Shown in pieces: positions 1-22,569 of a stretch of DNA of 64,000 nt; positions within the stretch are counted from its first letter, which is position 1, and each line of letters opens with the position of its first letter. Origin of the DNA: Candidatus Zhuqueibacterota bacterium (GTDB lineage Bacteria; Zhuqueibacterota; Zhuqueibacteria; Thermofontimicrobiales; Thermofontimicrobiaceae); assembly GCA_049322915.1 (NCBI GenBank), contig JBMOPW010000034.1, positions 424,567 through 488,566 of the forward strand. The letters are read 5' to 3'. The position numbers and the translations under genes were made by a program. Below the pieces are notes generated by a model, which saw only the letters and a list, made by a program, of their open reading frames with translations, did not search any database and had not been told where the DNA came from.

Positions 1-16
1 ATTTTTCAAATTTTAC

Positions 17-2401
17 GTCTCAATCCTCTATTAAGCAAGGCAATGATTCCAACAAAATAAAAATAGACTTGCGAGCACAATTAATCCAAAGTCTCAATCC
101 TCTATTAAGCAAGGCAATGATTCCAACCAGGATTAAGTTCGAGGATAGTAAGGCGATTATTCAATGTCTCAATCCTCTATTAAGCAAGGCAATGATTCCA
201 ACCAGTATATACATCACCGCCGTCGGGTTCGCTGTTGATAAGTCTCAATCCTCTATTAAGCAAGGCAATGATTCCAACTCGAGGCCGGAATTTATCCTCG
301 TTTCCCGGTTGATGTCGCGATGTCTCAATCCTCTATTAAGCAAGGCAATGATTCCAACATGCGTGCCAAGCTAGGTGTTTATGGAAAAAGAGCTTGGAGT
401 CTCAATCCTCTATTAAGCAAGGCAATGATTCCAACTACAACATCGGCGTAGAGATTTGTGATTGTGAGTGGGAGTCTCAATCCTCTATTAAGCAAGGCAA
501 TGATTCCAACTGATTCATGCCTCGGCTATAGTTCATAGAGGTAAGGCAATATTGTCTCAATCCTCTATTAAGCAAGGCAATGATTCCAACCAAGTATCGC
601 ACGAGAGGACTCGCTTCGCCAATATAGTCTCAATCCTCTATTAAGCAAGGCAATGATTCCAACGTCCCTCAGTATTTTTCTTTTATTAAAGAAGGTTTAA
701 CATACGTCTCAATCCTCTATTAAGCAAGGCAATGATTCCAACGCCAAAACGGCAAAGAAAGTCATCCGGCAGATATTAATGTCTCAATCCTCTATTAAGC
801 AAGGCAATGATTCCAACCAGATGTTATAGTTGTGACCTCCCATAACACTTGGAATGTCTCAATCCTCTATTAAGCAAGGCAATGATTCCAACCTGGCCGA
901 ACGAGACGGTGCATGTTTCAAACCCGGATTCTCTGGTCTCAATCCTCTATTAAGCAAGGCAATGATTCCAACGGCCGCATGGTTATTGCTGCTTGGAGGT
1001 GGCGCTTCTTCAAGGTCTCAATCCTCTATTAAGCAAGGCAATGATTCCAACGAAGCGTTTCTATTTGTTCGGAGCGCTTGCGTTTGTTTTTGTCTCAATC
1101 CTCTATTAAGCAAGGCAATGATTCCAACTCAGTACAACGACCGCCATTAAAAAGACAAATAATGGGAGTCTCAATCCTCTATTAAGCAAGGCAATGATTC
1201 CAACTGCTGACGCACAAAAATGGCAGCCGACCCAGCCGATTCCGTCTCAATCCTCTATTAAGCAAGGCAATGATTCCAACTACAGTTGATTTGAGTCGCA
1301 AGGCTCAAGTGCAAGAAGGTCTCAATCCTCTATTAAGCAAGGCAATGATTCCAACATGTTCCTGCTTCACTTGATATGCATGGTAAGCACATGTCTCAAT
1401 CCTCTATTAAGCAAGGCAATGATTCCAACGTTTTCTTGGGATGCTGCCCGTCGCGGTTATTGGTATAAAAGTCTCAATCCTCTATTAAGCAAGGCAATGA
1501 TTCCAACAGTGGTCTTGAGGAGTGGGAAAAATATCTTCCTAACGTCTCAATCCTCTATTAAGCAAGGCAATGATTCCAACTGTACAAGGCTCTGAAAGCC
1601 GGGTTTGTTGAGCGGTCTCAATCCTCTATTAAGCAAGGCAATGATTCCAACGCGTGCTAGACGCCAATAAATCCGTTGCTATAAATTGGTCTCAATCCTC
1701 TATTAAGCAAGGCAATGATTCCAACCAGTGTGGGCGTTCCTAAACGCCACCGACCCGTTACGTCTCAATCCTCTATTAAGCAAGGCAATGATTCCAACGT
1801 CACAGAAGCAACCAATGGAGAAATCTATTGGGTAGATGTAAAGTCTCAATCCTCTATTAAGCAAGGCAATGATTCCAACTCTTCTGTATCGAATGACACC
1901 ACCCCCAAAAAGTCTCAATCCTCTATTAAGCAAGGCAATGATTCCAACCTGTTCTTGATTTTGCAACCAGTATCACCACGATGTCTCAATCCTCTATTAA
2001 GCAAGGCAATGATTCCAACGTCCGCTATCTATGTCGTCCTTACCGGTTTTATCTTCTGTCTCAATCCTCTATTAAGCAAGGCAATGATTCCAACCAAACC
2101 AGTGGAGCCCGATCCCGTTTTATCTGTTTCTGTCTCAATCCTCTATTAAGCAAGGCAATGATTCCAACATCGGCGCTGACAGTTCCGTTGATGTCGCTGT
2201 TAAAATGAATGTCTCAATCCTCTATTAAGCAAGGCAATGATTCCAACGAGGGTCGAGACGGTCCCTGTATTTGAGACAGATATCACGTCTCAATCCTCTA
2301 TTAAGCAAGGCAATGATTCCAACCCGGAAAATTTTGGTTGGGGCAAAATAGTCCCAACCCTTTTGTCTCAATCCTCTATTAAGCAAGGCAATGATTCCAA
2401 C
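17..2401 (-). CRISPR. CRISPR array: 32 copies of a 37-bp repeat and 31 complete spacers of 32-44 bp; may continue beyond the left window edge
   Basis: Repeat GTCTCAATCCTCTATTAAGCAAGGCAATGATTCCAAC on + (starts at 17, 91, 166 ... 2287, 2365). Its reverse complement GTTGGAATCATTGCCTTGCTTAATAGAGGATTGAGAC ends in an ATTGAGAC 3' tag typical of Cas6-processed repeats. The AT-rich leader and cas genes lie to the right, so transcription is inferred on -. Confidence 0.99.
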
Positions 2402-2740
2402 CGTAGTCCTTTTTCACCTTTTATATACAATACGTTAAATTGCTCGATTACCTAACCGTTTTTTTTTGACATCCAATTATTATAAAGAGTGACATAATAT
2501 AGCCTCCATTTAATCCATTTTTTAGGAGCTAACTTCAATAAAACTTTAAGTGTCCGATTTTATTACCTAACCCCACCTGCAATAATTTATCACTTTAACA
2601 TATAATAATTTAATTAGATAACACATTTAAAACATGGCTTTATGCAAAACCAGTTCATCGGTTAGGTAATTTTGATGCTAACAAAAAAGAAATTCAATAA
2701 ATTACCTTATAAAAAAATAAGCTATTTTTACTCTATAAAA
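2402..2740 (-). promoter_or_regulatory. CRISPR leader
   Basis: AT-rich non-coding stretch between the cas2 stop and the first repeat; contains three copies of ATTACCTAACC(G). Confidence 0.85.
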
Positions 2741-3016
2741 TCAAATAACGATAACATCTTTTTCTTCCCACCCTTTTTTGATTCCATAACTTACAATTCC
2801 TTCTTCACAATTTTGACACAGTTTATAGATTCTTACACTATCTTCTTTCATGTCAATCAGTTTTAAAATCTTTTTAACCATTTCATTATATTGATCCTTA
2901 TCAAGATTACATTCGAACACACTGAACTGTACTCGAGTACCAAAATTACATAATTGTTTTGCCAGTTTTGTTCGCTGCTTGTCTTTGACTATATCATAAG
3001 AAACGATATATAACAT
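2741..3016 (-). CDS. cas2: CRISPR-associated endonuclease Cas2
   Basis: 91 aa; YIVSYDI...RVQFSVFEC...DSVRIY motifs; directly downstream of cas1. Confidence 0.97.
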   Translation of the reverse strand: MLYIVSYDIVKDKQRTKLAKQLCNFGTRVQFSVFECNLDKDQYNEMVKKILKLIDMKEDSVRIYKLCQNCEEGIVSYGIKKGWEEKDVIVI

Positions 3017-3018
3017 GG

Positions 3019-4017
3019 CTATTTATAAATCCTGATTGGTTCATAATTGCTTTGTGTCAAGATAGACTGAGAAAATTTATGCACCTGCTCTTTGAACAAC
3101 TGCCGAAATGACTTCTCCTCATCTTTATCTTGAAGGGTCACAGGTTCTTTAATTCTTTTTTCATAGTGAGTAAAAAATGTTTTCCTTGCTTCCTGAGTTA
3201 AATACACGCCTTCATTTTCCACGGGTTCAAAATCTTCTGACGTTAATATGTTGTTATTAAATATATTCAGAGTAAATCGATCCACAAAGGGATGGCGAAA
3301 TTCTTCGACAATATCAAGGGCAAGCGAAGGTCGGCCATAACTTAAACCATGAAGAAATCCAATATAAGGATCCAGTCCATGCGCAGTAATCATTGAAAAA
3401 ATTTCATTAGTAATCATGGTATAACCAAAGCTCAATAATGCATTCACAGGGTCTTTCGGAGGTCTGCGCGTTCGTTTTTCAAACCGTAATTCTTTTCGAA
3501 ACATTTTTCCGAACGCCCGAAAATATGCCGCAGTGCTGACTCCTTCAGCGCCCATAATACTGTTGACGTTATCCAGCTTATCCAAAGACAATAACGTCGT
3601 ATCAATGGTTTGCACTTCCTTTGAAAAATCAATTTCCGGATAATTTTGCTGATATCGTGAAATCAGCGCCCGACCATTTTTAATTTTTCCTTCGACAATG
3701 TTACGCGCTACTTTTGTTTGAAAGGCGCTGTCAAGGAAGCGCTCGTACTGGGCAACTCTGAGCAATACATTTTTGGACTCGGCCGGCTGAAGCTTACCGC
3801 GAAATTTACCCATGGAACTAAGATAGCACACTTCAATTCCTTCATCCAGCAATGTCCCAACAGCCTGGCTGGTAATTTGAATATTGCCAAACAGGAGGAG
3901 GCGGTCAACTTTAATGAGCGGTATCTGTAATAGTTTTTCTTTGTCTTTTGTCACGACAAGTTGTCTGGACGTAATTCGAACAGTACTGCCATTTTCAGTG
4001 ATGTAAATTGAACTCAT
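3019..4017 (-). CDS. cas1: CRISPR-associated integrase Cas1
   Basis: 332 aa; GAEG, RRPPKDPVNALLSFGY, GLDPYIGFLH and LALDIVEEFRH motifs. Confidence 0.98.
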   Translation of the reverse strand: MSSIYITENGSTVRITSRQLVVTKDKEKLLQIPLIKVDRLLLFGNIQITSQAVGTLLDEGIEVCYLSSMGKFRGKLQPAESKNVLLRVAQYERFLDSAFQTKVARNIVEGKIKNGRALISRYQQNYPEIDFSKEVQTIDTTLLSLDKLDNVNSIMGAEGVSTAAYFRAFGKMFRKELRFEKRTRRPPKDPVNALLSFGYTMITNEIFSMITAHGLDPYIGFLHGLSYGRPSLALDIVEEFRHPFVDRFTLNIFNNNILTSEDFEPVENEGVYLTQEARKTFFTHYEKRIKEPVTLQDKDEEKSFRQLFKEQVHKFSQSILTQSNYEPIRIYK

Positions 4018-4270: not shown

Positions 4271-7219
4271 CTAAATTTCAATAATCCATTTTATCGAATT
4301 ATCCTGGTTGATTCTCTTCAGCGTTCCCATCTTAAATTCCATTTTGTCACACTTTCGCTGATCGAACACCAGCTTCAATTTCGTTTCAAGTGTCTGTTTT
4401 TCTGTATCCAATGCCCGAAACTTTTGTTTCAGTCCAATGTAATCTTCCATAAGTTGTTCTAGCTCTATCTCCGGAATTATTTGAATTATTTCATCTTGAG
4501 GCGATGAAGAAATAGAATGATCAGCAGGTTGTTCTTTCTGTGTTGCTGATCCTGGTTTTTGTTTCGGTATTTCATGTGCAACAGGAATATCTTTCTTTGG
4601 GCTATCAGCGTTTGAGCTACTGCGATTTTTGGGTTTAAAATTTGAATCGGCATGAAGCAAAGGTGTGGGATAACATTTCGAATTTTCAGGGAATGGACAA
4701 TAGCAGCCAATGCTAGGAGTAATATGATTTTGCCATTCCCTTATTTTGGGACAACTTACAGGCGAACCTTTCAGGCGCAGATACCATTTTTGTGTAATTC
4801 TGTGATCATAGTTGAGCGTTTTGCTGATAATTTTGTGCAGCATATATCTTCCTTCTTCACCCAGATGTCCGAGTGTGTGAAGCAACGTTAAACGGTCAAT
4901 GTGCGCCAGATGACGTTCTTTTTCAACTTTATTCACTAAATATTTCAGAACATTACACTTTTCAATCATTCTTTCAGCTTTAGATGTATCTATATTTTTT
5001 GATGGGCCTTCAATTTCTCCTGCATTTAATCTTTCTATGGCTGCATGAAATTGTGATTGCGTTATTTGCTTAATAGAATTCAATACTTCGAACTGATTTT
5101 TCCAGGGCTGTCCACTCGGTTCCAGTAACAAACAACGCCTTTCTGTTAATTTATGAACACCAAGCGGCAATTTGACCATCGATCCCAGAGCTTTAGTTGA
5201 AACTCGCGCTTCTTTTGGAAATATTTCACGATTAATTCCAGAAGGCGGTTCTCCTGTTTCTTCTAATATTTTTTTCGCAAAGGCAATTCCATCTCTTGCA
5301 GGAACCGGATCTGAAAAGAAAAACCAAACGTGCCTTCCTTTAAACCCACTGTTTTCGATATAAACTGGAATATCTAATTTTTGACAAATCGAATATATAT
5401 TTACAGCATCTTGATGAGTTATTTCCTGCCATTTGTCCATGACGATTTCTTCATCAGTTGTTTCATTTCGTGCCTGGCGGGAAATATCAATGTCGATGAT
5501 GATATGTCTTACCGTATTATCTGTGCGCAGTATATACATACCCAGAGTTTCTTTACCCTGAAAATGTGATTTAACAACATCTTTAGAAAGCGGCTTATAG
5601 ACGGGATTGTACCCCAATCTCCCGGTATTATCCGTCCATTGTCGTGAGTATACGCCTTCTCGCGCGGAAAAAAGTTGTATGAATAATTGTATATCATTTT
5701 CCTCAAAATTGGCAATTGGTAGACTTTGAGGCGGGGCAGTAACTTTTTGTGGCTGAGTAACGTTTTTAATGCGCTTTAACTTAGGGTCTAATTGAAACGC
5801 TTTTTCGAAAGCTTTTTGTGCTGCCCCGTTTAATGAGAACTTTTTCAATGCAGTCGCCAATGCAAAATGGGCATGAGCCGAATCCGGTGAATTTTGAATG
5901 GCTTTTTGCAGAAAACGAATCGCTCGCTCGAATTGTCCCTGATTCAAGTAATGCTGGCCCAACCGATATGCCGCGTCAGGATGATCTGCCTGAAGCCGGT
6001 ACACACGATGGTATGAATCAATTGCCTCCTGCTGCTTGTCCGATAATTCACAGATAACTCCCCACTGATATTGAAGTTCAGCATCTTCTGTGTTTTGTAT
6101 GGGAGCATTTTCGACCAAATTTTGGGCTTTCGGAGTATCGCCGAAATGCAATGCAAGAGCTGTCGTTAAAAGGCGAGCAGGCAATGATTCCTGCTGCGAT
6201 TTCAATTTATTCAGGAATTCTTCAAAAATCTGTTTTTTATTGGTGGTATCTAATTGAAAATAATTAGACCAGCCGCGAATAATACTTTCAAGCTTATCTT
6301 TCAGTTGTACATCAGAAATAGTTTCAGCCTTTTCCAGCACTTTTTCTATTTTCTTTGTTACTTTTTCCACAGAAGAAGCACTGGGCCTTTTACCTGACAA
6401 GTCAAAATAATATCCCAAAAATACAAACCCATCTTTAGCATGTAATATCTTTGTTTTATCCTTGTGAAACTCGAGTTGTAAATCCTGTTTCAGACATTGG
6501 TTTGCACGCTGGAATGCCGTATTTGCCTCCTGTTCTGACTGGCATAGTACGACCAAATCATCTGCATATCGAATATAGTTCCATTTTGCTTTTATCATTT
6601 TCTCGTCAAGAACATGTAAATACAAGTTCGCCAGCATCGGTGAAATCGCCCCTCCCTGAGGGATTCCTTTTCCTTCTTGAGATTGTCCGGATTTTAATAT
6701 CAGTTCAATTATCCTTATAATTTTATTATCAGCGACATGACTTTCCAACATTTTTAAAACCAGATTGTGATCCACATTATCGAAAAAACCTTCGATATCA
6801 GCATCAACAATCCACTGCTTACCTTTTTTAATATTCCTCATTACACGCTCTGCCGCTTTTTGTGCAGATTTACCGGTTCGATAAGCATAGCTGCAATCTA
6901 AAAACACTTTTTCAAGAATTGGTTGAATTGGGAGTTGTAAGGCTACTTGTACAACCCTGTCTCGTACTGTCGGGATTTTCAGTTCCCTTAATTTACCTGA
7001 TTCCTTTTTGATCTGGAAGCTAAGAAGTGGAAGTGGCTGATACGTTCCTTGTTTCACTGTCTCTAAAAGTAAAGATAAATTTTCATCCAAATTTTGTTCA
7101 AAATCTGAAATCGTAACTCTGTCCAGCCCGGGTGCGCCAAGATTGGAACGAACTTTAGACCATGCTTGTTGGAAATTCTCCTTATTACAGATATTAAACC
7201 AGAGCGGCTGCTGAGACAT
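4271..7219 (-). CDS. CRISPR-associated reverse transcriptase-TPR-primase/polymerase (AEP/CAPP-like) fusion
   Basis: N-terminal group II intron-type RT (AWSKVRSNLGAPGLD, IPTVRDRVVQ, DADIEGFFD, GIPQGGAISP, YADD, X/thumb motif IRGWSNYF). TPRs at about aa 345-485. AEP motifs IIIDID, ENSGFKGRHVW and KLPLGVH. Cys/His-containing PriL/PriCT-like C-terminal region (KCNVL...SCPKIRE...GCYC). Confidence 0.9.
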   Translation of the reverse strand: MSQQPLWFNICNKENFQQAWSKVRSNLGAPGLDRVTISDFEQNLDENLSLLLETVKQGTYQPLPLLSFQIKKESGKLRELKIPTVRDRVVQVALQLPIQPILEKVFLDCSYAYRTGKSAQKAAERVMRNIKKGKQWIVDADIEGFFDNVDHNLVLKMLESHVADNKIIRIIELILKSGQSQEGKGIPQGGAISPMLANLYLHVLDEKMIKAKWNYIRYADDLVVLCQSEQEANTAFQRANQCLKQDLQLEFHKDKTKILHAKDGFVFLGYYFDLSGKRPSASSVEKVTKKIEKVLEKAETISDVQLKDKLESIIRGWSNYFQLDTTNKKQIFEEFLNKLKSQQESLPARLLTTALALHFGDTPKAQNLVENAPIQNTEDAELQYQWGVICELSDKQQEAIDSYHRVYRLQADHPDAAYRLGQHYLNQGQFERAIRFLQKAIQNSPDSAHAHFALATALKKFSLNGAAQKAFEKAFQLDPKLKRIKNVTQPQKVTAPPQSLPIANFEENDIQLFIQLFSAREGVYSRQWTDNTGRLGYNPVYKPLSKDVVKSHFQGKETLGMYILRTDNTVRHIIIDIDISRQARNETTDEEIVMDKWQEITHQDAVNIYSICQKLDIPVYIENSGFKGRHVWFFFSDPVPARDGIAFAKKILEETGEPPSGINREIFPKEARVSTKALGSMVKLPLGVHKLTERRCLLLEPSGQPWKNQFEVLNSIKQITQSQFHAAIERLNAGEIEGPSKNIDTSKAERMIEKCNVLKYLVNKVEKERHLAHIDRLTLLHTLGHLGEEGRYMLHKIISKTLNYDHRITQKWYLRLKGSPVSCPKIREWQNHITPSIGCYCPFPENSKCYPTPLLHADSNFKPKNRSSSNADSPKKDIPVAHEIPKQKPGSATQKEQPADHSISSSPQDEIIQIIPEIELEQLMEDYIGLKQKFRALDTEKQTLETKLKLVFDQRKCDKMEFKMGTLKRINQDNSIKWIIEI

Positions 7220-7280
7220 TTTGCACTCCGATATTTTTTAGGTTTTTATTTATTTTAATTGAGACGATAGACATGCTTCC

Positions 7281-8294
7281 TCAACTCCCAAATGATAATT
7301 TATATTTTCCTAAACCAAATGTAGTATTTTTTCCAACATGTACATACTGCCCTAAAATTAAAAATGGTAAAAATGGTTGTAAGTACCCCTGAAATGTAAT
7401 TCGCCCGGTAATCCCCCCTAGCTTCATTCTCGTTTTCTGACGGCTGGAATACCTCTCCCAATCATTCCATTCTGTATTTGCATCCACAACTTCGACGTTT
7501 TCTTTTGCTTGCAGAATAATTTCTGGATAATTTAAAGCCCATTCACTATCACAATGTATTTTTCCAAGCATAGAAACACGTCGTATTAAATTCCGCATCA
7601 ATAGTTCAAAAGTAACATTTTCAATTAATTGTTTTTTTAATATGATCCTCAACGGAGATATTATATCTATATGAATTTGCCCGGTATTTGCGTAGGTTAG
7701 ACATTCATGCAATTTATTTAAATCCCAGATTATGAAATTTCCGTTTAATACCTGATCCTTTTTATCAAATATTTGCCGAGATTGATAGGATGATATATCC
7801 TCGATTGCATTTACTGATATTAAGTCAAATTTGCCTCGGCCTTTTCCCAGCCCGATAAGGCCAAGCTGATCGAAAGTATATATAAAATAAGGAAGATATC
7901 TTATACTCTTTCCAATTAAAATCAATCCAAATGACAACTTTTCCCCGGCTTTATATTCTTTTTGCTCAGACAATGGCGGCTCGATAACAAATGGATGAGG
8001 ATAGTTATCTGCAAAATGTTGAATATCGTAACTTCTTAAATTTGGGGTTTCAAAAATGTAGGCATACGGGCAAGTCTGGTTCAAAATACATATTTGGCAC
8101 TGTTTTTCTAATGCATCACAGACAACGCGTCGAAATGTGTTCCCAAAACCACCTCGTAGAGTAGACCCTTTATATTCTGGCAGATAAAGGGTTTCTTTCG
8201 CTTTAATGTTAAATTCGAACATCGCCCAGGTAAATTTTTGATTCCAGAAATCTTCCTGCCAACTCAATTCAGTATTTGACTTCACTGCTTGCAT
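7281..8294 (-). CDS. cas6: CRISPR pre-crRNA processing endoribonuclease Cas6
   Basis: KGSTLRGGFG, Cys cluster CxxCx4CPY, PHPFVIEPP and C-terminal glycine loop HVGKNTTFGLG. Confidence 0.93.
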   Translation of the reverse strand: MQAVKSNTELSWQEDFWNQKFTWAMFEFNIKAKETLYLPEYKGSTLRGGFGNTFRRVVCDALEKQCQICILNQTCPYAYIFETPNLRSYDIQHFADNYPHPFVIEPPLSEQKEYKAGEKLSFGLILIGKSIRYLPYFIYTFDQLGLIGLGKGRGKFDLISVNAIEDISSYQSRQIFDKKDQVLNGNFIIWDLNKLHECLTYANTGQIHIDIISPLRIILKKQLIENVTFELLMRNLIRRVSMLGKIHCDSEWALNYPEIILQAKENVEVVDANTEWNDWERYSSRQKTRMKLGGITGRITFQGYLQPFLPFLILGQYVHVGKNTTFGLGKYKLSFGS

Positions 8295-8356: not shown

Positions 8357-9412
8357 TTATAACTTTTCCTTTAACAGAGTTCTAAAATTTTCATTATCAA
8401 AGATTTTTATATTTAATTCCTGACATCGTTCGTACAGATGCTTTTCTTTCCTCATAGGAGCAGATGTCACAAAATAGGCTTTACCAAATGTACCTCCAGC
8501 TAATGAACGCAATGCTTCCAATTCAAAAATATCTTTCTTGTCTTTAGTAATACCAGATTTACATGAAAAGAGATATAGCTTTCCATTTTTATTGCCGATG
8601 ACGTCAATTTCGTTCAGAATAATATTTGGGTCTGCCTGTCCGTGGTATGTCAAATTCGCTCCGACAAATAAATCGTCCCATTTTTTATTAATAATACTCC
8701 AGTAAACATATTCTTCCAACCAACGGCCATCTAAATAATAAATATCTTTCAAATGAATCTCTGATCCTCCAAATTTAACAACCGCCCCTTTCATTTTATG
8801 ATGAGTTATTTCAAAGTCAATGTGACGACATCGAATCGGTGGAAAAAGCACGGTACCATCATATATAAATCTTCTATATTGGATTAAACAACCTTCAATA
8901 GATTGAAAATTTTTATGTATAAATTTAATTAAGGGTTTTCTCGCTAAGAGATCGTCGTTGGATACCGAACTGGAAATTTTATAGCCGTGTGCGTCAAGGA
9001 TCGTATCGATAGGAATTTTCACCTTATGATCAACAATTGTATAAGGATTGAAATTGATTGTCTTATTATTATGTGAATCAAGATATACAATAGATTTATT
9101 TTTTGAATTAAAGACAGAATATGCCGCTAGCGCCATTACTTTCGTTCCGCCGGTCGCGTTGAGTATAACATCCTTATGCATAGAAATGATTTCACTACAA
9201 ACCGTTCGAATATTTTCAAAATCATAAGCATCAATCAAATGCTCGTTTATGGTAAAATTTTTACCAGAATCGCTCAAAACTCTTTTTAAATTTTTATGGG
9301 ATCGTTCCTCCTCAACTGTGTAAAGCAATTCAACATTCTTAATACTTAGAGTGAAAAGTGGAATAAGGTTTGCCATGACCTGCCTGGAAACCAGACACAC
9401 CATTGTTTTCAT
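8357..9412 (-). CDS. CARF + PD-(D/E)XK nuclease effector (DUF1887, Card1/Can2-like)
   Basis: N-terminal CARF (LVSRQ..AN, NATGGTK) and C-terminal restriction-like motif GRWLEEYV...NEIDVI...FSCKSG. Confidence 0.85.
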   Translation of the reverse strand: MKTMVCLVSRQVMANLIPLFTLSIKNVELLYTVEEERSHKNLKRVLSDSGKNFTINEHLIDAYDFENIRTVCSEIISMHKDVILNATGGTKVMALAAYSVFNSKNKSIVYLDSHNNKTINFNPYTIVDHKVKIPIDTILDAHGYKISSSVSNDDLLARKPLIKFIHKNFQSIEGCLIQYRRFIYDGTVLFPPIRCRHIDFEITHHKMKGAVVKFGGSEIHLKDIYYLDGRWLEEYVYWSIINKKWDDLFVGANLTYHGQADPNIILNEIDVIGNKNGKLYLFSCKSGITKDKKDIFELEALRSLAGGTFGKAYFVTSAPMRKEKHLYERCQELNIKIFDNENFRTLLKEKL

Positions 9413-9454
9413 TTTTTCCCTCTACTCGTTGAAAATAGACACATTTCAGAATTA

Positions 9455-10618: not shown

Positions 10619-10622
10619 TCGT

Positions 10623-12454: not shown

Positions 12455-12479
12455 ATTGGCTCACCTCATCATAAGATTT

Positions 12480-12863: not shown

Positions 12864-12887
12864 GTATTTCTTCTCCAAAATTCTAAT

Positions 12888-13131
12888 GAAATCCGATATT
12901 GTCACGGCAAACCAATTATAAAAGCCACAAGGGTTTTAGTCAGTAATATTTTAGGCGTACTTTCTACTGGCGAAACAATCAAACAGATACTCGAAGATTA
13001 CCCTAACATAATCCGTAAAGACGTATTAGCTGCGCTTAAATGTGGTAGCGAACTCTCAAATTTTGAAACCTTTTCCTATAAGTCCTACACATTATGATTT
13101 TTTTCTTGATGAAAATTTTCCGAAATCGGTA
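12888..13131 (+). pseudogene. Remnant of a DUF433 antitoxin / DUF5615 PIN toxin pair
   Basis: Frame 12900-13097 reads CHGKPIIKATRVLVSNILGVLSTGETIKQILEDYPNIIRKDVLAAL with no start codon. The overlapping ATG at 13094 is followed, across a frameshift in a T7 run, by FFLDENFPKS and is then cut off by the TIR-FGE gene. Confidence 0.8.
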
Positions 13132-14325: not shown

Positions 14326-16599
14326 TTAATGGTTTATCACGTCCTCTGGAGCCGGTAAGACTGGTCGGTTTTTATATTCATTCTCTTTATTTGTTTCTTG
14401 TTCATGTTCGATTTCAAGATAACGAGTCCTTTCGTTCCAGAATTTTTTGTGCGTATTATCCCAATCCAACATAACTTTTAATTGTTTCAAACGATATGTA
14501 TCCCACAAATCGTTAGCGGAAGGCTTTTCTGTGCTTCCAAGATTTTTAATAATATGATCTGAAAATTCTTTCTTCATTTCTGAAATCTTATCATCATGCG
14601 CTGCCGGTATAGACTCAACCCATTCAGCTAATAATGATCGATATCGCTGTTGACGGTTACTTAGATATAAATGAGGAGTAATTTTAACACTTCCCATTCC
14701 CAATGGCTTCCCCATACCAATCTTATGGCAGCATTTTTCTGGTAGTTGTAAAGCAAATAATATTGCGCCAAGTTCTTCATTTAATAGATTTTCAAATCGA
14801 ATTTTGGTATTAAATTTTGCATTGGTTGGAATAATATTAATAATTGTGTATTGAGTTTGTACACCAATCATTTTGCTTAGTTTTTCAATGGCATTTTTAA
14901 ATCTTTCATCCGTTATTTCTTTTATCTTCTTAACCAGAATCCGATTATCAGTTTTTTCAATCATATTGAATTGAATTGCTACTCCCTCTTTCTGCATAAA
15001 TTCTAAGAAAAGCTGTTTGTCAACGATCAGATCCAATTTATGATCCTGATATTGAGAATGCACATTTAATATTTGAATATACTCAAATACTATCTTTTTG
15101 AATTGCTCATCAGGACAGTTAATGAATCCTCTTATTTTTATTTTTTTGTCTTTTTCTTCTAATAGAATTCCCTTAGGAATATTTAAATTTTTAAAATTTA
15201 AAAACATCATAAAAGAAATTTTGTCAAATATCAGTTCATCTGCTCGCCCATTTCTGTTCCGATGCCAATAAAGTTTATGTCCGCGAAGTATAGTATCTAA
15301 AGAATTGTAATGATTTAATTCCTGGATAAAATCACTTTTTTGAACTAAATAATGTTGAAAAGTTGTGGGCTTGGGAGTTGCAAGTATTTCTGGAATAACA
15401 GTATTATTTGAACCAGGTTCGTTTTTGCTAATTAAATATCCATCCTCAAAGAATACTCTTCCGGCGATGGTTATATCTTTTCTTACTGTTCCAAAGATTG
15501 CCTCTGTCATATCGATTTTAGGATTATCCAGATCATAAGGCAACAATTCACCAAACGACTGCTCATAGGCGATACGAAACATAGCGGTATATCCAAATGA
15601 AATCCTCCCATTTTCATGTTCTACATAAAAACAAGGTATTATATCATTTTCATGGGATTTTAATTCATTTAGCAGATCAGTCCCAGCCCTATTTTCATCG
15701 GAACGATACAGCTTAATATCCATTTCATCAAGTTTAATTGGTTTTGTATTTATATCTGGAGGATTAATCACCCAATCATGTTTTTTATTTGGCATATTAC
15801 CAGAAACGACAATATACTCCTCACCAGATTTAAAAAAGTAATTTTTAAAATGAGAAAACCCCTCTTTTTCTATCGTATCTTCTTTTGAGATTTGATAAAA
15901 CTGCTTACTCTCAAATTTACGATATCGTTTACCATCTAATCTTTTTGCAGGTATGATCTGATAATTAACGCCTATTTTCGTTAAATATCCGGCATTCATT
16001 TTATATGTCGTTGATTTTGAACTCTTATCAAAGGGTGACATTTTATTTTGATATTCTTTACGGAAGTTACTTTTATCTGCTAATGCTCTATAATGAAGTA
16101 CTCGGTCTGATTCAGTTGTTATCTTGCTCCAACTTAAAATTTCCACTAGTGTTCTAATCATGCCACGAAATGAACTTCCAGGAATTGCTGCTTTTCCTGT
16201 CGGAGAAAAGAAATTTGAAGATTGTCTTGCAACAAACTCTTTTGTATCTTCAATTTTTTTATCGCAGTCTCGAATATAAACAGGAGTTAATGTCTCAATA
16301 TCACACTCAATATAACCGTTATGTCGGTCATTATCATAAGTATTAAATTTTTCGTAACGTGTGCCTTCAATTACTTTTTCACTCAAGGGAATAAAATTAT
16401 AAGGTGCTCTTGCCTGTCGATTGTATTTTGTGTTTTTATCAAATCTTATTTTTTTTGTTTGCCGTACAGCTTTTCTACCAAAGAACTCATTTCCTTTTAT
16501 TGAATCATCTAGTTTTACTTGAGACTTAGCTAAATTTATTCCCTGTTCTTTAGCTATTTTCTGTAATTTATCTTTCCAATCTTGCATTGTATTCTCCAA
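14326..16599 (-). CDS. cas7: Type III-D Cas7 with large insertion (TIGR03986-like RAMP)
   Basis: APYNFIPL, TLTPVYI, IPGSSFRGMIR, GRVFFED, PKPTT..HYL, RGHKLYWH and KIGMGKPLGMGSV. Confidence 0.9.
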   Translation of the reverse strand: MENTMQDWKDKLQKIAKEQGINLAKSQVKLDDSIKGNEFFGRKAVRQTKKIRFDKNTKYNRQARAPYNFIPLSEKVIEGTRYEKFNTYDNDRHNGYIECDIETLTPVYIRDCDKKIEDTKEFVARQSSNFFSPTGKAAIPGSSFRGMIRTLVEILSWSKITTESDRVLHYRALADKSNFRKEYQNKMSPFDKSSKSTTYKMNAGYLTKIGVNYQIIPAKRLDGKRYRKFESKQFYQISKEDTIEKEGFSHFKNYFFKSGEEYIVVSGNMPNKKHDWVINPPDINTKPIKLDEMDIKLYRSDENRAGTDLLNELKSHENDIIPCFYVEHENGRISFGYTAMFRIAYEQSFGELLPYDLDNPKIDMTEAIFGTVRKDITIAGRVFFEDGYLISKNEPGSNNTVIPEILATPKPTTFQHYLVQKSDFIQELNHYNSLDTILRGHKLYWHRNRNGRADELIFDKISFMMFLNFKNLNIPKGILLEEKDKKIKIRGFINCPDEQFKKIVFEYIQILNVHSQYQDHKLDLIVDKQLFLEFMQKEGVAIQFNMIEKTDNRILVKKIKEITDERFKNAIEKLSKMIGVQTQYTIINIIPTNAKFNTKIRFENLLNEELGAILFALQLPEKCCHKIGMGKPLGMGSVKITPHLYLSNRQQRYRSLLAEWVESIPAAHDDKISEMKKEFSDHIIKNLGSTEKPSANDLWDTYRLKQLKVMLDWDNTHKKFWNERTRYLEIEHEQETNKENEYKNRPVLPAPEDVINH

Positions 16600-16602
16600 T
16601 CT

Positions 16603-17181
16603 TTAATCTAAAGGTTTTTGATTGTTAACAAATCCTACAAAACGACAGTCAACGTAAGATGCCTGATGCGCTTCGTTATAGCCGATATAATTATGCGTTT
16701 TGATACATACTCTGTTTTTTTCATTATCAACTTTTAAAGCAGAATAATTAAAAGGTAAAATGAGATTTGTTCCTCGTTCTTCATTGATTTCAGTAAAATC
16801 ATCTTTAGTTAATTTACGGGCATCAGTGCCGCATAATACTTGATTTGCGATAATAATTTCTGCCTCTTGTTGAATGTTCACATCATTGTCGATTCGGAGT
16901 CTTCCTTTCAACCCGCCGTTTGTTCGCCATAAATATAGCTCTTTATCTTTGTTAAATATTCGAACCTTTTGAAGAAACTGAATATTTAATGATTCATTAT
17001 TATGAGAGCTAAATTGGTTATCATCCCATCGTCCAATTAGTACTGCATAATCAAGCCAGGCAACGTAAAAAGCGCTTTCATTTATCAAAGAGCTCACTGT
17101 ATCTTCCAGGGTATTTTTTATTTCAACTGGTGAAACTGATCTTGATTTTATTTCTTTATATTCCAATCCATTAGCTTTCAT
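16603..17181 (-). CDS. csx19: Csx19-like type III-D subunit
   Basis: 192 aa; RIFN..KELYLWR and C-terminal YVDCRFVGF; canonical position between Cas7-Cas7 and Cas7-insertion. Confidence 0.8.
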   Translation of the reverse strand: MKANGLEYKEIKSRSVSPVEIKNTLEDTVSSLINESAFYVAWLDYAVLIGRWDDNQFSSHNNESLNIQFLQKVRIFNKDKELYLWRTNGGLKGRLRIDNDVNIQQEAEIIIANQVLCGTDARKLTKDDFTEINEERGTNLILPFNYSALKVDNEKNRVCIKTHNYIGYNEAHQASYVDCRFVGFVNNQKPLD

Positions 17182-18574
17182 TTCCGACCTCCTTTTTCAC
17201 TAATGAAGTGACATATTTTTGGAGTATGTCTTGTTCTGCTTTAGTTAAATTGTTCAGGTCTGTATTTTCTATTACAGGATCATCGTTTATTTTTATAATA
17301 GCTGATTTTCCATTAAAAACGCCACGACCTACATTTTTTTCACCACCTACAGCTAAATCACCAGACCACAAATCCTTTAATACTAGCAGTAATAGTCCCG
17401 CTTCGTAATCCTTGTAATCTTGAATAGTCATTTCCAGCTTTAGAACTTTTTCAGTGAAATCGATAAATAAAGGCATACTTTCAAACAATGCGGATTCTAT
17501 TGTACCGCCTGTAAAACGATCGATTTTTATTCGGGTTTGTATCTCAGCCACAAATTCAGGAAGCTCAACTTCATTGATTAGTAGTTTGCTTTTAATTGCC
17601 CTTTCAATTTTTTTTTCAGTCCTAATGGTATCCGATTTTTTTTCTTCAGGAATGAACCCAAATAATTCTTTTGCAATAATTTCAGGTTTACCTAGAGTAT
17701 TTAGAATACGCTCAGCTCGTCCCCTAATTGCGCCCTTCAACGATGAACCAGGAATAATATACTTACCCTTTGATTTTATGTGAACACTGTCCGGCTCTTT
17801 AGGATTTGATGAATATGATCTTATTATTATTGAGTTTTGAAGTTTCAGGACAGCTTCAATTGAAAACACGTCTTTTCTTTTAAATGGAAATGGATCGCCA
17901 AGATCAGTAATTTTAATTATATTAACTGCATCAAATTTCTTTGTTAGATAATTAAACACATTTCGTTTTTTGTTCGCATCATCCTTGAAATCAAATTCAT
18001 ATAGTTTTGAGTCTTCATCATTTAATTTCACAATTCCCAAACCATTATTCGTTTTCCCACCAAGGATAATCTGTGATTCGGACAATACCTGATAAATTGT
18101 TCGAACCATTCGTTTTATGAATTTTTTATTTTCATTTGTATACTCAAATTCCATATTTAGATTGAATGGAGAACCAGGTTCAACAATTTCATAATCATAT
18201 TTTCCATTGTGCTCCACAAGCCCTGTACGATTATCAATCCGAATGCCATCACGAATCACAATATCAGGCTTTTTATCTGAGTATAAATCGGAACAGTGAA
18301 AAGAACATTGATGTCCAGTTTTCTTTTTAGAAAAACCCCAGAAATTTTTAACAAAATTATCATTTATATCAGGATGTCTTTCAAGATCAATAGAATGCCT
18401 CAATACTCCACCAAATGAAGTTGCCGGGATAAAAGCGTAACCATTATCATCCACCAATACATCCATGTCACTGTGTTCTCCCGAGCCACAACCAATATGA
18501 AGAGGCGAAAGACATTGGACTTTTCCTTTCAGAAATATCTTACCCGTTATTCTCTCTTTATTATTTGTCTCCAT
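17171..18574 (-). CDS. cas7: Cas7-Cas7 double RAMP (Csm3-like)
   Basis: Two RAMP units: SPLHIG/IPATSFGG/RDGIRID/GGKTNNGLG and IPGSSLKGAIR/RIKIDRFTGG/GGEKNVGRG. Confidence 0.9.
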   Translation of the reverse strand: METNNKERITGKIFLKGKVQCLSPLHIGCGSGEHSDMDVLVDDNGYAFIPATSFGGVLRHSIDLERHPDINDNFVKNFWGFSKKKTGHQCSFHCSDLYSDKKPDIVIRDGIRIDNRTGLVEHNGKYDYEIVEPGSPFNLNMEFEYTNENKKFIKRMVRTIYQVLSESQIILGGKTNNGLGIVKLNDEDSKLYEFDFKDDANKKRNVFNYLTKKFDAVNIIKITDLGDPFPFKRKDVFSIEAVLKLQNSIIIRSYSSNPKEPDSVHIKSKGKYIIPGSSLKGAIRGRAERILNTLGKPEIIAKELFGFIPEEKKSDTIRTEKKIERAIKSKLLINEVELPEFVAEIQTRIKIDRFTGGTIESALFESMPLFIDFTEKVLKLEMTIQDYKDYEAGLLLLVLKDLWSGDLAVGGEKNVGRGVFNGKSAIIKINDDPVIENTDLNNLTKAEQDILQKYVTSLVKKEVGNES

Positions 18575-20165
18575 GCTTTTCCTCCTTCTTTGTATTGTTG
18601 ATCTTTCTCATTGTTGAAAAGAGCGTTTCATAAAATCGGTAATATAACATAGCGTTTAATTGTTGATCCTGTAATGGACTGTAATCAATTTTACCACTTA
18701 TTTTATTTAGTTTTTCTAACCGTGAGAATTCCTTTTTGCTTTTCAGCTTATCATTAATCCAATTACAATTTATATTTGTTTTTTCAATAAATTCGAGCAA
18801 GTTAACTTCCCTGTTTTTACAGTTCACCAATTTTTTACGCGCAGTGTCTCTTAATTTTTCGAATAGACCAAGATACTCTTTATAAATATTGTTTTTATTG
18901 GGATCAACATCAGTATTGATTTTACTGAGATCAATACTTTTTAATATCGCTAAAAGCCGGCCAATAAGAGAATTTGTTGGATAGGTTTGTCTATAGAATC
19001 CATCCGCTTCTTTCAATTCTTCCTGCGCTAAATATTCAGCGTATTTTAGATAACTATCTTTTATTAATTGTGTCATTACATTAATTGTTAATTCCGGTAT
19101 TTTACCTTTTGGCTCTGAAAATGTCGCTCTATTCGTATAAGTCTGTTTAACCAATGTTTCACCATTTTGCCAGCCCAAAATACACTGCCCAAAACCTTCA
19201 CGAGTGCGTTCACCGATACCTGTTTTTTCAAATTGTTTAATTCGATCAAACTCATCCTTTGTAATTTTAAGCAAAAATGTTGAACCGGCAAGGAAGCAGC
19301 TTTCTGAAGGCTTCTTTAATTTCCAGACGCCAACAAAACTTTCTGTTTCACCTTTCTTTATAAATGACTTAATAATTTGCGCTGGTTCTATTTCTAAATA
19401 TTCTGATAGCGCTTTTTTATTGAAAACAGGAAAACCATTTTCATCATATAAAATCGTATTGGAAAGCAATGTTAAAGAAATTTCGTCTTCAAATTCAACA
19501 TCTCTGTCCATATCTTTAATTGAAGAAACTTCAAAATTTAGAGAAACCTTGCCATACTGCGCGTTCCTGGAGCGACCGATATATGCTATCGGATCAGGTT
19601 TAAACAGATCAGCTAAATCTTTCAGTATTTGTACATCGCCAAGAATTTCCCCTTGAAATAGCTGGCCTGAATCAATTGATTCATAATTAAAAATTTGTCC
19701 TTCTTCTGTAATTCCTGTTTCCCGATTTCTTGCATGATGAAAATTTAGAGATGTCACTGTATTTTTAACGAAGATTTGTTCTTCGCTTATTGAGCAGAAT
19801 TCACCTAAACTTTTAGTCGATTTATCAGGTCTGTCATAAAGCAAATCGAAAATCTCCTCTCCATATTTCTCTTTCTGTATCGAACAAGGCATTGTTAGAT
19901 GATTGTAAATAGTTCCATTATCCTCATGACAAATATAGGCATTTCTGTAAAAGACATCCTGAGATAAAAACATCTTTTGAAAGCCGGGATTTTTATGTGC
20001 ATTCTCATAAGATAAATTATTTTTCGCAATGTATCTTTTTGCAAGTATTCCCAGCACAACGTTCCCGGGAATGCAATGCTCAGTATTTACCATATTCATG
20101 TCACCATGTTTAGCCGATAACACAACAGGTGATTGTGTTCTTATTATGTATGTAATTGATTTCAT
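18561..20165 (-). CDS. Csx10/Cas5-like RAMP with a helical C-terminal extension (probable fused Cas11)
   Basis: IPGNVVLG, IGRSRNAQYG, AGS and GIGERTREGFG glycine loops; helical C-terminus of about 170 aa. Confidence 0.75.
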   Translation of the reverse strand: MKSITYIIRTQSPVVLSAKHGDMNMVNTEHCIPGNVVLGILAKRYIAKNNLSYENAHKNPGFQKMFLSQDVFYRNAYICHEDNGTIYNHLTMPCSIQKEKYGEEIFDLLYDRPDKSTKSLGEFCSISEEQIFVKNTVTSLNFHHARNRETGITEEGQIFNYESIDSGQLFQGEILGDVQILKDLADLFKPDPIAYIGRSRNAQYGKVSLNFEVSSIKDMDRDVEFEDEISLTLLSNTILYDENGFPVFNKKALSEYLEIEPAQIIKSFIKKGETESFVGVWKLKKPSESCFLAGSTFLLKITKDEFDRIKQFEKTGIGERTREGFGQCILGWQNGETLVKQTYTNRATFSEPKGKIPELTINVMTQLIKDSYLKYAEYLAQEELKEADGFYRQTYPTNSLIGRLLAILKSIDLSKINTDVDPNKNNIYKEYLGLFEKLRDTARKKLVNCKNREVNLLEFIEKTNINCNWINDKLKSKKEFSRLEKLNKISGKIDYSPLQDQQLNAMLYYRFYETLFSTMRKINNTKKEEKHGDK

Positions 20166-20818
20166 ATTAATCCCTCCATTTGCTTTTCTATTGAAAGGAG
20201 TTTATCTTTATCAAATAGTTCGCATTCAACTTCGCCCAGCCCTTTGTTACGTTTAGCGCCAAAACTTCTGAAATTCGAGCAAGCTGCAATAAGCGTATTA
20301 GTAATTACTTGTTGCGCTGAATCATCATGTATTATAATTTTGCCATAAAATTCATGGTTTTTTCTAACGAGACGCATTGTTCGCAATGAATTTTTAAGAG
20401 CAATGCCGTCATCAGCAATTGCCGTTTGATGTCGTTCTTCAGTGAACATTTCAATAATGACATCCTTTGAAAGAATCCCCGAATAATCTTTAGATTTCCA
20501 GAAATATTTCAGCCATCGAGTATTTTCGTCATATTGATTAATAACCAGGTTTTCAAAATAAACAGGAGCTTCTTTTTGCTGACCTTTTTCACCAAAAGTC
20601 TTATCTATATCCAATTTCATATCAATACCGGCAAGTTTAATCATCTCCTCTACATCTTTAGCTGAATCAAGTAAGCAACCTTTAATTCGCTTGGCGGGAA
20701 TATAGGGAATACCCAAATCGTCATAAACGACATCCACGTCAATCAACGCTCCGTATCCCGTTCCTGAACCAATTAATGCCGGTGATTTCAGTCGAAGTTT
20801 TAGCGTATATTCAATCAT
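20162..20818 (-). CDS. cas7: Cas7-group RAMP protein
   Basis: SPALIGSG, GIPYIPAKRIKG, SLRT and GAKRNKGLG. Confidence 0.85.
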   Translation of the reverse strand: MIEYTLKLRLKSPALIGSGTGYGALIDVDVVYDDLGIPYIPAKRIKGCLLDSAKDVEEMIKLAGIDMKLDIDKTFGEKGQQKEAPVYFENLVINQYDENTRWLKYFWKSKDYSGILSKDVIIEMFTEERHQTAIADDGIALKNSLRTMRLVRKNHEFYGKIIIHDDSAQQVITNTLIAACSNFRSFGAKRNKGLGEVECELFDKDKLLSIEKQMEGLI

Positions 20819-22569
20819 TCTAAATCTCCTTCCAGTTTTAATGGATAAAATTCCATCAGCTCTATCATGTCAAAATAGGGAGTTTGATTTTCTGTATCTC
20901 CTTTTTCATTTGATATATTGAAAAACAAATCTTTTGATCTCCCCTTAATTGTAGGCAATGACCTACCCCTGTATTCCAACTCCTGAACAAATTGAGTTAA
21001 TGATTCTTGTGACAATGTTAACATTCTTCTAAATTCTTTTATTTTAGAATTTGGCAGCTTTTCCAACTCTTTTGTATTATTAATTAGCTGTATAAAACTT
21101 TTATCATGATTTGTTTCAGAAATTAATTTATACGGTCGGAACAAAAGATTACCGTTTATTACCTGGTAATGCACTTTCCGAATTTCTTCAAGATCTCCGG
21201 CAAGCCCGCCGTAAGCAATATGAAAATCAATAAAAGAACCTTTCTCATCATTATTCCGCCTATAGGCTTTTGCATTATTACATAATTGCTCTGCGAGGTC
21301 ATATCCCCGATAAAAAGGATATTTTGATTTTATAATTGCCACGCCGGCGCTTGCTGTAATGCCTGGATTCTTTTCATGTTTTTCAAAATATTCAATGAAT
21401 TTTTTGGCAAAAAAGATTCCGAGTTTTCCATCGCATACAAATGTTACATCATCTCCACCTAAAATAATTTGTCGTATTGGGAGTACTTTACGTATAGACT
21501 TTTCTTTTATTGAATCTACAAATTTTGACTTATCTTCGGTTGTAAGCCAACTTTTCAATTTGGTCTCAAATTCTTCTTCGAGATATTGAGAATTAATATG
21601 GTGACGAAGTTCACTGACGGATTTTTCAGATAAACCAATTTCTATTAATTCTTTAATAAGTTTTTCTCTGATTACATACTCTACAGGAAAATAGTTACTA
21701 TTATCTTTTGGATCATCCTCAAATCCGAGAAAATCCATAAGTTGTATATAGTCGTCACGAATGTATTTTATTAATTTTTTAAATGATTCAAATGAGACTT
21801 TTTTGACTGTCGCTGAAAGCTTTCTCAAATCTTCTAAAGAATTTTGTTTTTTGAAAAGCTCTCCCATATCATTCCCGTCAATATGAACAATAGCAATGTG
21901 ACTGTCAGAATTTTTCAATTGCCCTAATTGTTCAAGTTGGCTTGTGAGGCAGAAATTCTCTCCTAAAATATCTGAATAATCATCATCCAATTCATTCTGT
22001 ACCTGAGGCCAGGCGTTTAATTTAGCATAAGACACGCTCGATACATATTTTTCCTGATCCTCATGCCATTTTTCTTGAGACAAGCCGCTGTTGGTACACT
22101 CGGATGTTATGCCATGTCTCGGCAATGTTGTTTGCGGCATATAATTAAATTTATTTTCCTGTAATAATTTAAACAAATCATCTTTTGATTCTTTAAACTT
22201 AGACGATTCGATATTTAGTTCCCCCAAAGCAACGGCTGTTATAATTCCAGGAGTTTTAACAAGTAGCTTTTTTGTCCAATTCTTAACAAATTGTTTTGCT
22301 TTTAGAGGTTCTGCAAACAATAGCAGCGCATTACCTCCGCCAATATAACCTATGTCAAAGGGTTCCTTTGGGTGACCAAGTTCATTTTCCCATGACTTAA
22401 AATCTATTTTTTCACCTACGAAAAGTTCAGTTACAGCTTCTTGTAAATATTTTTCATAAACAGATTTAACCAGGTAGGACGCGCCAAGATTTTCTTTCAA
22501 TTTCCTGCTTTGAAAAATATATTTTTGAATAGAAACTGTATCAATTAGCACAGCATGATAAACGCTCAT
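20815..22569 (-). CDS. cas10: Cas10 (HD-less, intact GGDD palm)
   Basis: IQKYIF...GAS, YIGGGN, IVHIDGNDMG, LGGDDVTF, SAGVAI..K.PF; no N-terminal HD domain (584 aa). Confidence 0.95.
   Translation of the reverse strand: MSVYHAVLIDTVSIQKYIFQSRKLKENLGASYLVKSVYEKYLQEAVTELFVGEKIDFKSWENELGHPKEPFDIGYIGGGNALLLFAEPLKAKQFVKNWTKKLLVKTPGIITAVALGELNIESSKFKESKDDLFKLLQENKFNYMPQTTLPRHGITSECTNSGLSQEKWHEDQEKYVSSVSYAKLNAWPQVQNELDDDYSDILGENFCLTSQLEQLGQLKNSDSHIAIVHIDGNDMGELFKKQNSLEDLRKLSATVKKVSFESFKKLIKYIRDDYIQLMDFLGFEDDPKDNSNYFPVEYVIREKLIKELIEIGLSEKSVSELRHHINSQYLEEEFETKLKSWLTTEDKSKFVDSIKEKSIRKVLPIRQIILGGDDVTFVCDGKLGIFFAKKFIEYFEKHEKNPGITASAGVAIIKSKYPFYRGYDLAEQLCNNAKAYRRNNDEKGSFIDFHIAYGGLAGDLEEIRKVHYQVINGNLLFRPYKLISETNHDKSFIQLINNTKELEKLPNSKIKEFRRMLTLSQESLTQFVQELEYRGRSLPTIKGRSKDLFFNISNEKGDTENQTPYFDMIELMEFYPLKLEGDLE

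Follow-up and report, generated by a model that had tools for sequence, protein, structure and literature searches.

A reverse transcriptase and primase-polymerase fusion beside cas1-cas2 in a type III-D CRISPR locus of a Zhuqueibacterota bacterium

How RNA is turned into an integrable spacer in type III CRISPR systems is debated – direct RNA integration, self-priming by a reverse transcriptase (RT), and host polymerases are the routes under discussion. A gene in the genome of a Candidatus Zhuqueibacterota bacterium (assembly GCA_049322915.1) raises this question in a compact form. Within a 64,000-nucleotide stretch of contig JBMOPW010000034.1 (positions 424,567 to 488,566, hereafter ‘the window’), a single gene between cas6 and cas1 encodes a protein that carries both an RT and a primase-polymerase (Prim-Pol). 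What might one chain with two polymerases contribute to the Cas1-Cas2 encoded next to it? We found that the protein is a member of a published, named family, CART-CAPP (CAPP, CRISPR-associated primase-polymerase), whose CAPP part is named by an NCBI model. We consider it likely, with high confidence, that the protein acts as a DNA-synthesis module with the adjacent Cas1-Cas2 in type III-D spacer acquisition. Answers to how its two polymerases would divide the work are more tentative.

The fusion protein and its family

The gene occupies positions 4271..7219 of the window on the - strand, begins with an ATG that has a GGAG 8 nt upstream, and encodes 982 residues. A first-pass annotation, made from the sequence alone, had described a fusion of RT, TPR, AEP Prim-Pol, and cysteine-containing C-terminal domains. 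Pfam and NCBIfam matches far above chance support this domain list and the position of the gene. The reading frame and its motifs are also as described (YADD at residues 218-221, DID at 576-578, SGFKGRH at 624-630, and KLPLG at 683-687), and the C-terminal domain (CTD) contains cysteines at 755, 823, 839, and 841. Three features had been overlooked: a Gam-like tail, a linker of ~50 residues, and the continuation of the CRISPR array past the window to 144 repeats. The protein thus comprises five modules – a group-II-intron-type RT, TPRs, an AEP Prim-Pol, a four-cysteine (Cys4) helical domain, and a Mu-Gam/Gp157-like tail – and is a CART-CAPP of RT-TPR-AEP-CTD-Gam-like layout with a CAPP part of type A1.

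The CAPP assignment comes from NCBIfam NF040561 (‘CRISPR-associated primase-polymerase type A1’), which matches residues 361-907 at 389.3 bits (cut-off 200; 388.5 bits in a genome search) over positions 6-475 of the 515 in the model. We read the short name of this model, PrimPol_Msp, as denoting a Marinitoga model. The features of the type are all found here: intact AEP motifs, TPRs before the AEP domain, a cysteine-bearing CTD after it, and adjoining cas1-cas2 genes. PADLOC likewise assigned the protein to its CRISPR ‘RT’ (311 bits) and ‘PrimPol, adaptation polymerase’ (295 bits) profiles.

The RT module (residues 13-339; 6203..7183, - strand) matches the group II RT/maturase model TIGR04416 at 330.6 bits (cut-off 300), as well as Pfam RVT_1 (4e-37) and the thumb/X family GIIM (3e-5, residues 285-334). 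It is organized as an N-terminal extension, fingers, a palm with D141 and the YADD motif, and a thumb/X region, and a Pfam scan found no DNA-binding or endonuclease domain. The nearest solved chains are bona fide group II RTs, 7uim_D (183.6 bits, 5e-53, residues 6-326) and 6ar1 (156 bits). Similarity falls to 105 bits for the Cas6-RT-Cas1 chain 7kft and to 53 bits, a distant likeness, for the RT domain of the Caloramator RT-CAPP (8bgj). This comparison with the Caloramator type, 53 against 183 bits, is one between solved chains. As expected of a CART, the catalytic YxDD and thumb/X are both present, and a scan of window positions 1-27000 gave no intron RNA at the Rfam gathering score.

The TPR region (residues ~345-495; 5735..6187, - strand) is matched by several Pfam TPR families, the best being TPR_2 (1.8e-10), and lies within the NF040561 match. 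It is followed by the AEP Prim-Pol catalytic domain (residues 509-725; 5045..5695, - strand), which matches Pfam AEP-TOTE (PF22548) at 5e-45 and the solved Prim-Pol domains of Marinitoga MsCAPP/MpCAPP (7nqf/7nqd/7p9j) at 8e-35. The domain aligns residue by residue with the Marinitoga chains through DID, xGxxGxH, EIFPK, and K(L/V)PLGVHK. Motif I is D576-I-D578, motif II runs from S624 to H630, and motif III is E665 in EIFPK – the counterparts in 7nqf/7nqd being DID, TGNRGYH, and EIFPK – with KLPLGVH at 683-689. In MpCAPP the DxD aspartates D177 and D179 are reported to be essential, and E260 to bind the 2'-OH of the initiating nucleotide (PMC8211822, PMC10345425).

The AEP-plus-Cys4 part (residues 513-831) is also matched by the PADLOC UG10/DRT7 profiles, at 161 bits. 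CRISPR adaptation thus seems to share a Prim-Pol-CTD unit with an abortive-infection system that stands alone. Two Pfam families of the protein carry the name of the TOTE conflict system (PF22548 at 5e-45 and PF22709 at 8e-13), which is described as TPR, OB, TBP, and Effector (PMC12458937). None of its partner genes (OB/cold-shock, TBP) was found in a scan of 18 open reading frames (ORFs) from 2.7 to 25.4 kb.

In the Cys4 helical domain (residues ~746-865; 4625..4984, - strand), C755, C823, C839, and C841 are invariant in 61/61 full-length relatives and in 28/28 locus-derived CTDs. An AlphaFold model of residues 726-982, built from the alignment of those 28 CTDs, reached a mean pLDDT of 84, with 94-98 over the helical domain, 47-58 in the linker (model residues 141-180), and more than 93 in the tail. 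Fold matches make a PriL-CTD/photolyase-like fold a candidate for this domain, with a probable metal or Fe-S site. PriL-CTD and photolyase share a common architecture according to the title of PMC2852410, and a review models the CAPP CTD as acting like Pri2/PriX on the initiating nucleotide (PMC10345425). Like the C-terminal [4Fe-4S] domain of PriL, the domain here is helical, follows the AEP domain, and has four invariant cysteines; PolpTN2 is also reported to join an AEP to an Fe-S domain of PriL-like type (PMC5862659). There is no clear match to these domains at the level of sequence: the helical domain matches no Pfam model, and a CTD profile had no match among PDB sequences at E≤10. Among the 25 families listed, none of the 28 CTDs matched PriCT at E≤1, and one of the 28 matched PF04104 (PriL) weakly (E 0.038). 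A Foldseek search of the C-terminal model against PDB returned nothing at E≤0.001; the PriL Fe-S domain ranked second, at E=2.

The linker (residues ~866-915; 4475..4624, - strand) is of low complexity and low model confidence, and its ~50 residues align poorly among relatives. Beyond it, the tail (residues 921-982; 4274..4459, - strand) matches Pfam Mu_Gam-Sipho_Gp157-TOTE (PF22709) at 7.9e-13, a match shared by 19 of the 28 CTDs scanned. Modelled alone, the tail forms a 39-residue helix that leads into a sheet of three strands (pLDDT 90.7). Structure searches of PDB and BFVD returned nothing below E 0.1 for it – the top matches were uncharacterized phage proteins (probability at most 0.97, E 0.19-1) and Tudor/coiled-coil fragments – so the fold assignment follows from the Pfam match. 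By analogy with the name of that Pfam family and with the CTD-CTD self-association of MpCAPP, we infer that the tail may take part in dimerization or DNA-end handling.

CAPPs were defined by Zabrady and colleagues in 2021, with a class CAPP_A that includes CAPP-TPR (Marinitoga), CAPP-RT (Caloramator), and CAPP-helicase forms (PMC8211822). The Marinitoga protein is described as TPR-AEP-CTD with a ‘PriCT-like’ CTD containing conserved cysteines. It is reported to be a DNA-dependent primase/polymerase that needs D177/D179 and primes inefficiently on RNA. Its synthesis can displace strands, and its assays included integration-like substrates; the CTD and TPRs mediate self-association, and the TPR+AEP fragment binds Cas1 (PMC8211822). 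The Marinitoga Prim-Pol is also described as starting with GTP. The window protein shares with it the TPR-AEP-Cys CTD order and a gene directly upstream of cas1-cas2, but has an extra 340-residue N-terminal group-II-type RT. The settings also differ: MpCAPP is reported from a III-B locus with Ago (PMC8211822), whereas the locus here is III-D with no Argonaute among the ORFs scanned.

The closest parallels in domain content are the CART-CAPPs of Caloramator australicus and Geobacillus lituanicus, in which an RT likewise precedes a Prim-Pol and CTD in one polypeptide beside cas1-cas2. A 2023 study reported that the RTs of these fusions prime and extend on RNA and DNA, that the Prim-Pol was inactive in vitro in both, and proposed that this holds generally (PMC10415136). 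The Caloramator protein is described as 713 residues long with an RT that lacks an N-terminal extension, whereas the 982-residue window protein has a full RT with thumb, TPRs, and a Gam-like tail. In contrast to the inactive Prim-Pols, the AEP domain here has clearly conserved catalytic residues, as judged from the alignments. A review places RT-AEP fusions in ‘clade 12’ of CRISPR RTs (PMC8632793). The two Doherty-lab papers present TPR and RT as alternative N-terminal modules (PMC8211822, PMC10415136), and neither ‘TPR’ nor ‘tetratricopeptide’ occurs in the 2023 paper (PMC10415136). We found no description of the combined RT+TPR form in the literature searched, a search that had supplements and the Toro 2019 clade paper outside its scope.

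Two further systems offer partial parallels. As in the Cas6-RT-Cas1 and RT-Cas1 fusions of Marinomonas and Thiomicrospira, a group-II-derived RT is found in type III adaptation, and the gene order cas6 – RT fusion – cas1 mirrors the domain order of Cas6-RT-Cas1. Unlike in those fusions, Cas6 and Cas1 are encoded separately in this locus, with an entire CAPP module between RT and Cas1. DRT7 (UG10) also has an RT together with an AEP-CTD module, which is homologous to residues 513-831 of the window protein, but it works on its own in abortive infection, synthesizes poly(T)/poly(A) by protein priming, lacks cas genes, and has an RT of another lineage.

Relatives, gene order, and catalytic residues

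A word-indexed search returned 743 relatives, of which 61 full-length proteins (930-1043 aa, 33-81% identical) were aligned. An exhaustive search with residues 501-982 returned 3183 cluster representatives at E≤0.001, of which 532 reached E≤1e-30; their lengths have two modes, at ~920-1050 and ~580-680 aa. We classified 258 proteins from both searches with hidden Markov models built from alignments – a biased sample that includes fragments, and in which TPR and Gam calls are relative to the family of the fusion itself. The five-module architecture, RT-TPR-AEP-CTD-Gam, was the most frequent (94 proteins), followed by TPR-AEP-CTD-Gam (37), RT-AEP-CTD (35), RT-AEP-CTD-Gam (34), AEP-CTD-Gam (22), TPR-AEP-CTD (19), and smaller classes. 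The first-pass annotation had called the architecture rare rather than unprecedented. Published CAPP-RT fusions bear out the second half of that statement (PMC8211822, PMC10415136), and the count of 94 in 258 indicates that the form is less rare than was implied.

The five-module sub-architecture is abundant in metagenomes and uncharacterized at the bench. Its distribution within the class of the host is patchy: matches above the family cut-off occur in 7 of 61 same-class genomes, including this one, in each case an open frame of 958-1020 aa. A scan of genome contigs with the full-length alignment recovered mostly ordinary group II RTs, with a CAPP part in 3 of 80 loci (L001, L002, and L071). 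Metagenome loci were collected with six closer sequences as the query.

The association with adaptation genes is conserved across these collections. Of six genomes of relatives, five have cas1-cas2 directly after the gene, and in the sixth the contig stops after 1.27 kb of repeats. The same adjacency is seen in 25 of the 31 metagenome loci and in all three stand-alone TPR-CAPP loci. Among the six metagenome exceptions, the contig stops at the gene or no more than 150 nt from it in four, a second RT-CAPP paralog lies downstream in one, and the gene is fragmented in one. cas6 lies directly upstream in four of the six genomes and in seven of the eight five-module metagenome loci whose contigs extend 1 kb or more upstream; none of the eight loci of shorter RT-AEP relatives with as much sequence has cas6 upstream.

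Phylogenies indicate that the parts of the gene have a shared history. A FastTree of the AEP-CTD region (232 rows) placed the window protein in a 29-row clade composed entirely of RT+TPR proteins; architecture labels were strongly clustered across the tree, and none formed a single clade. In an RT tree (233 rows), one branch (SH-like 91) separates 157 CAPP-fused RTs from 76 group-II-type RTs. This topology is compatible with a single RT origin within the sampled fusions, for an outgroup that is a convenience sample from genome loci and a set in which the Caloramator type is absent. The 29-row RT and AEP-CTD clades have 28 members in common, suggesting that the fused gene evolves as a unit.

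We next compared the two active sites. In the 61 full-length relatives the AEP residues D576 and D578 are each conserved in 60, H630 in 60, and E665 as E in 59 and D in 2. In the RT of the same proteins, D220 is conserved in 60 of 61, and position 221 has aspartate in 40 and asparagine in 21. Across all 258 proteins, the AEP tetrad D-D-H-E is complete in 97/102 RT+TPR proteins, 67/69 RT-only proteins, 56/57 TPR-only proteins, and 25/30 proteins without an N-terminal module, while the RT motif reads (Y/F)xDN in 24/102 RT+TPR and 0/69 RT-only proteins. By residue conservation, the fusions retain the Prim-Pol site to the same degree as the stand-alone enzymes of known activity, and the RT site is the one that drifts. 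The window protein retains the catalytic residues of both, with YADD in its RT. One metagenome contig (L105) carries tandem RT-CAPP paralogs (588-3704 and 4618-7884) that are 68% identical, both with YSDN.

The type III-D locus

The neighbours named in the first-pass annotation – cas6, cas1, and cas2, all on the - strand – were recovered by Pfam and NCBIfam. cas6 (7281-8294) lies directly upstream of the fusion gene, which is itself 253 nt upstream of cas1 (3019-4017); cas2 (2741-3016) lies downstream of cas1. This cas1 is the only one found in the assembly, which is 96% complete. Past cas2 we place an AT-rich leader of 339 nt (2402..2740, - strand) in the interval before the first repeat, followed by the CRISPR array (17..2401, - strand).

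The window holds 32 identical 37-nt repeats, against a chance expectation of none. They form the leader-proximal end of an array of 144 repeats at contig positions 415935-426967, with spacers of 32-46 nt. Read in the - strand orientation of the array, the repeat ends in ATTGAGAC, which we take to resemble a type III crRNA tag. One spacer sequence is present twice, and a degenerate repeat probably lies within a gap of 116 nt at contig positions 424467-424582. When 142 spacers were compared with the genome itself by BLAST, two had strong matches: sp35 (34/38 positions) is antisense to a 643-aa ORF on contig C7, and sp102 (40/40 positions) matches a palindromic intergenic stretch on contig C12.

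The effector genes lie at 14326..22569 on the - strand and encode a TIGR03986 RAMP, Csx19, Csx7-like, Csx10-like, and Cmr6-like proteins, and Cas10. The III-D setting proposed earlier fits this gene set: Csx19 (115 bits, cut-off 35) and TIGR03986 (378, cut-off 161) score above their cut-offs, Csx10 reaches only 74 bits (cut-off 177), and Cas10 has a palm GGDD at residue 371 and no HD domain.

An unusually large accessory set of cyclic-oligoadenylate type occupies 8357-14139 and 22583-25353 on the - strand. It includes two Card1-like CARF-PD-(D/E)xK nucleases, a TM-CARF protein (9455-10618), Csx20, a Csm6/Csx14-like CARF protein, and a TIR-SUMF1/FGE-sulfatase fusion at 13132-14139. TM-CARF and TIR-SUMF1 genes also occur near other RT-CAPP loci (L092, L108, L115-L119, and L125). 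Two overlapping ORFs within the cas operon, at 10623-11399 (258 aa) and 11396-12454 (352 aa) on the - strand, match no Pfam or NCBIfam family; the sole match for the pair is a weak one of the 258-aa ORF to the PADLOC ‘oligonucleotide cyclase’ (E 6e-4).

The G+C content is 31-39% over the CRISPR-Cas block at 2-26 kb; near 25-26 kb it switches to the 45-55% of the remaining window, and the genome as a whole has 48.8%. The block is thus probably a horizontally acquired island.

A proposed division of labour between the two polymerases

What could this protein do for Cas1-Cas2? We infer a set of activities, a split of labour between the two polymerases, and a set of protein contacts. The RT would copy foreign RNA, and DNA too, into a first DNA strand, probably starting de novo as reported for other CRISPR RTs (PMC10415136). 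The AEP Prim-Pol, which is DNA-dependent in the Marinitoga homolog, would prime and fill the complementary strand, the integration gaps, or both, and the Cys4 helical domain may help to hold the initiating nucleotide in a PriL-like manner. The TPR-AEP part and the Gam-like tail may mediate Cas1 contact and self-association, and Cas1-Cas2 would then insert the product at the leader-proximal repeat. The first-pass annotation had suggested that the TPRs dock to Cas1-Cas2, a putative contact whose published counterpart is limited to the binding of Marinitoga Cas1 by a TPR+AEP fragment (PMC8211822). A precedent for such a relay comes from a different system, DRT7, in which an RT-to-Prim-Pol hand-off is reported to make duplex-like DNA (bioRxiv 10.64898/2026.04.18.719102).

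Several points weigh against this scheme. The relay suggested in the first-pass annotation – RT for the first strand, Prim-Pol for priming or the second – is hypothetical: in both published fusions that were assayed, from Caloramator and Geobacillus, the RT primes and extends by itself and the Prim-Pol is reported inactive (PMC10415136). A universal relay is further weakened by the 24 of 102 RT+TPR relatives with (Y/F)xDN, in which the RT may not polymerize. The conservation of catalytic residues is, moreover, no proof of activity. Finally, the spacers give no sign of an RNA source: no protospacer showing RNA origin was found, the self-matches of sp35 and sp102 are uninformative on this point, and a megablast of window positions 1-2401 (31 spacers) against a phage collection returned no match.

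We tentatively propose that the RT+TPR clade represents a second kind of RT-CAPP, with a full group-II RT attached to a complete CAPP of the Marinitoga type, perhaps of an origin independent of the Caloramator type, and that its two polymerases work in relay. The RT would make cDNA from RNA, and the AEP domain with the Cys4 domain would prime and complete the second strand to yield a duplex prespacer. In about a quarter of the members, those in which the RT motif is YxDN, the RT might instead have turned into a non-catalytic module that binds RNA, leaving the AEP domain as the sole polymerase. We consider this proposal possible but less likely than not.

An alternative is that the RT does all priming and extension on RNA and DNA, with the AEP domain retained as a dead scaffold for Cas1 binding or dimerization. 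This is the arrangement suggested by the Caloramator and Geobacillus proteins, in which mutation of the RT abolished activity, and by the generality hypothesis of their authors (PMC10415136). The conservation described above argues against extending a dead Prim-Pol to the RT+TPR clade, although residues prove no activity: the D-D-H-E tetrad is kept in RT+TPR and RT-only fusions at the level of the stand-alone active type, and it is the RT motif that degenerates. The Caloramator and Geobacillus results may also not transfer to the window protein, because its RT is distant from the Caloramator RT and its CAPP part is of the TPR type. We regard a dead AEP domain as unlikely here, while still taking it seriously.

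A second alternative confines the AEP domain to repair of the integration intermediate – gap filling or strand displacement over the duplicated repeat – with no part in prespacer synthesis, so that only the RT would act upstream. The strand displacement by MpCAPP and its assays on integration-like substrates speak for such a role (PMC8211822). However, the data fit second-strand synthesis equally, both roles could hold, and the stand-alone TPR-CAPPs beside cas1-cas2 without an RT are compatible with either. As an exclusive account, we judge repair to be about as improbable as the dead scaffold.

It is far less probable that the gene is a DRT7/UG10-like abortive-infection RT-primase whose place in a CRISPR island is incidental. 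DRT7 does couple an RT with a Prim-Pol (bioRxiv 10.64898/2026.04.18.719102), and the PADLOC RT_UG10_large profile matches residues 513-831 at 161 bits. That match is nevertheless limited to the AEP-CTD part, the best PADLOC profiles for RT and CAPP are the CRISPR ones, cas genes flank the gene, and the cas1-cas2 gene order is kept across distant relatives. The least credible explanation, that the gene belongs to a group II intron, mobile or in decay, would account for the TIGR04416 score and for the many relatives named ‘group II intron reverse transcriptase/maturase’ in databases. We effectively dismiss it, given that window positions 1-27000 contain no match at gathering score to any Rfam family, group II introns included, that at least 94 relatives carry the RT in frame with some 640 residues more, that the CAPP-fused RTs split from group-II-type RTs on one branch, and that the Pfam scan of the protein found neither of the accessory domains noted above.

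The most likely reading remains a CART-CAPP that serves Cas1-Cas2 in type III-D spacer acquisition. An intact RT and an intact-looking primase-polymerase in one chain, beside a single Cas1-Cas2, would make this locus a clean test case for built-in second-strand synthesis. The retention of the AEP site in relatives whose RT site is sometimes lost provides a testable prediction contrary to the view drawn from the two assayed fusions. If the RT+TPR clade does work as the relay proposed here, the published idea of a Prim-Pol that is dead throughout the RT-CAPP fusions would no longer stand.

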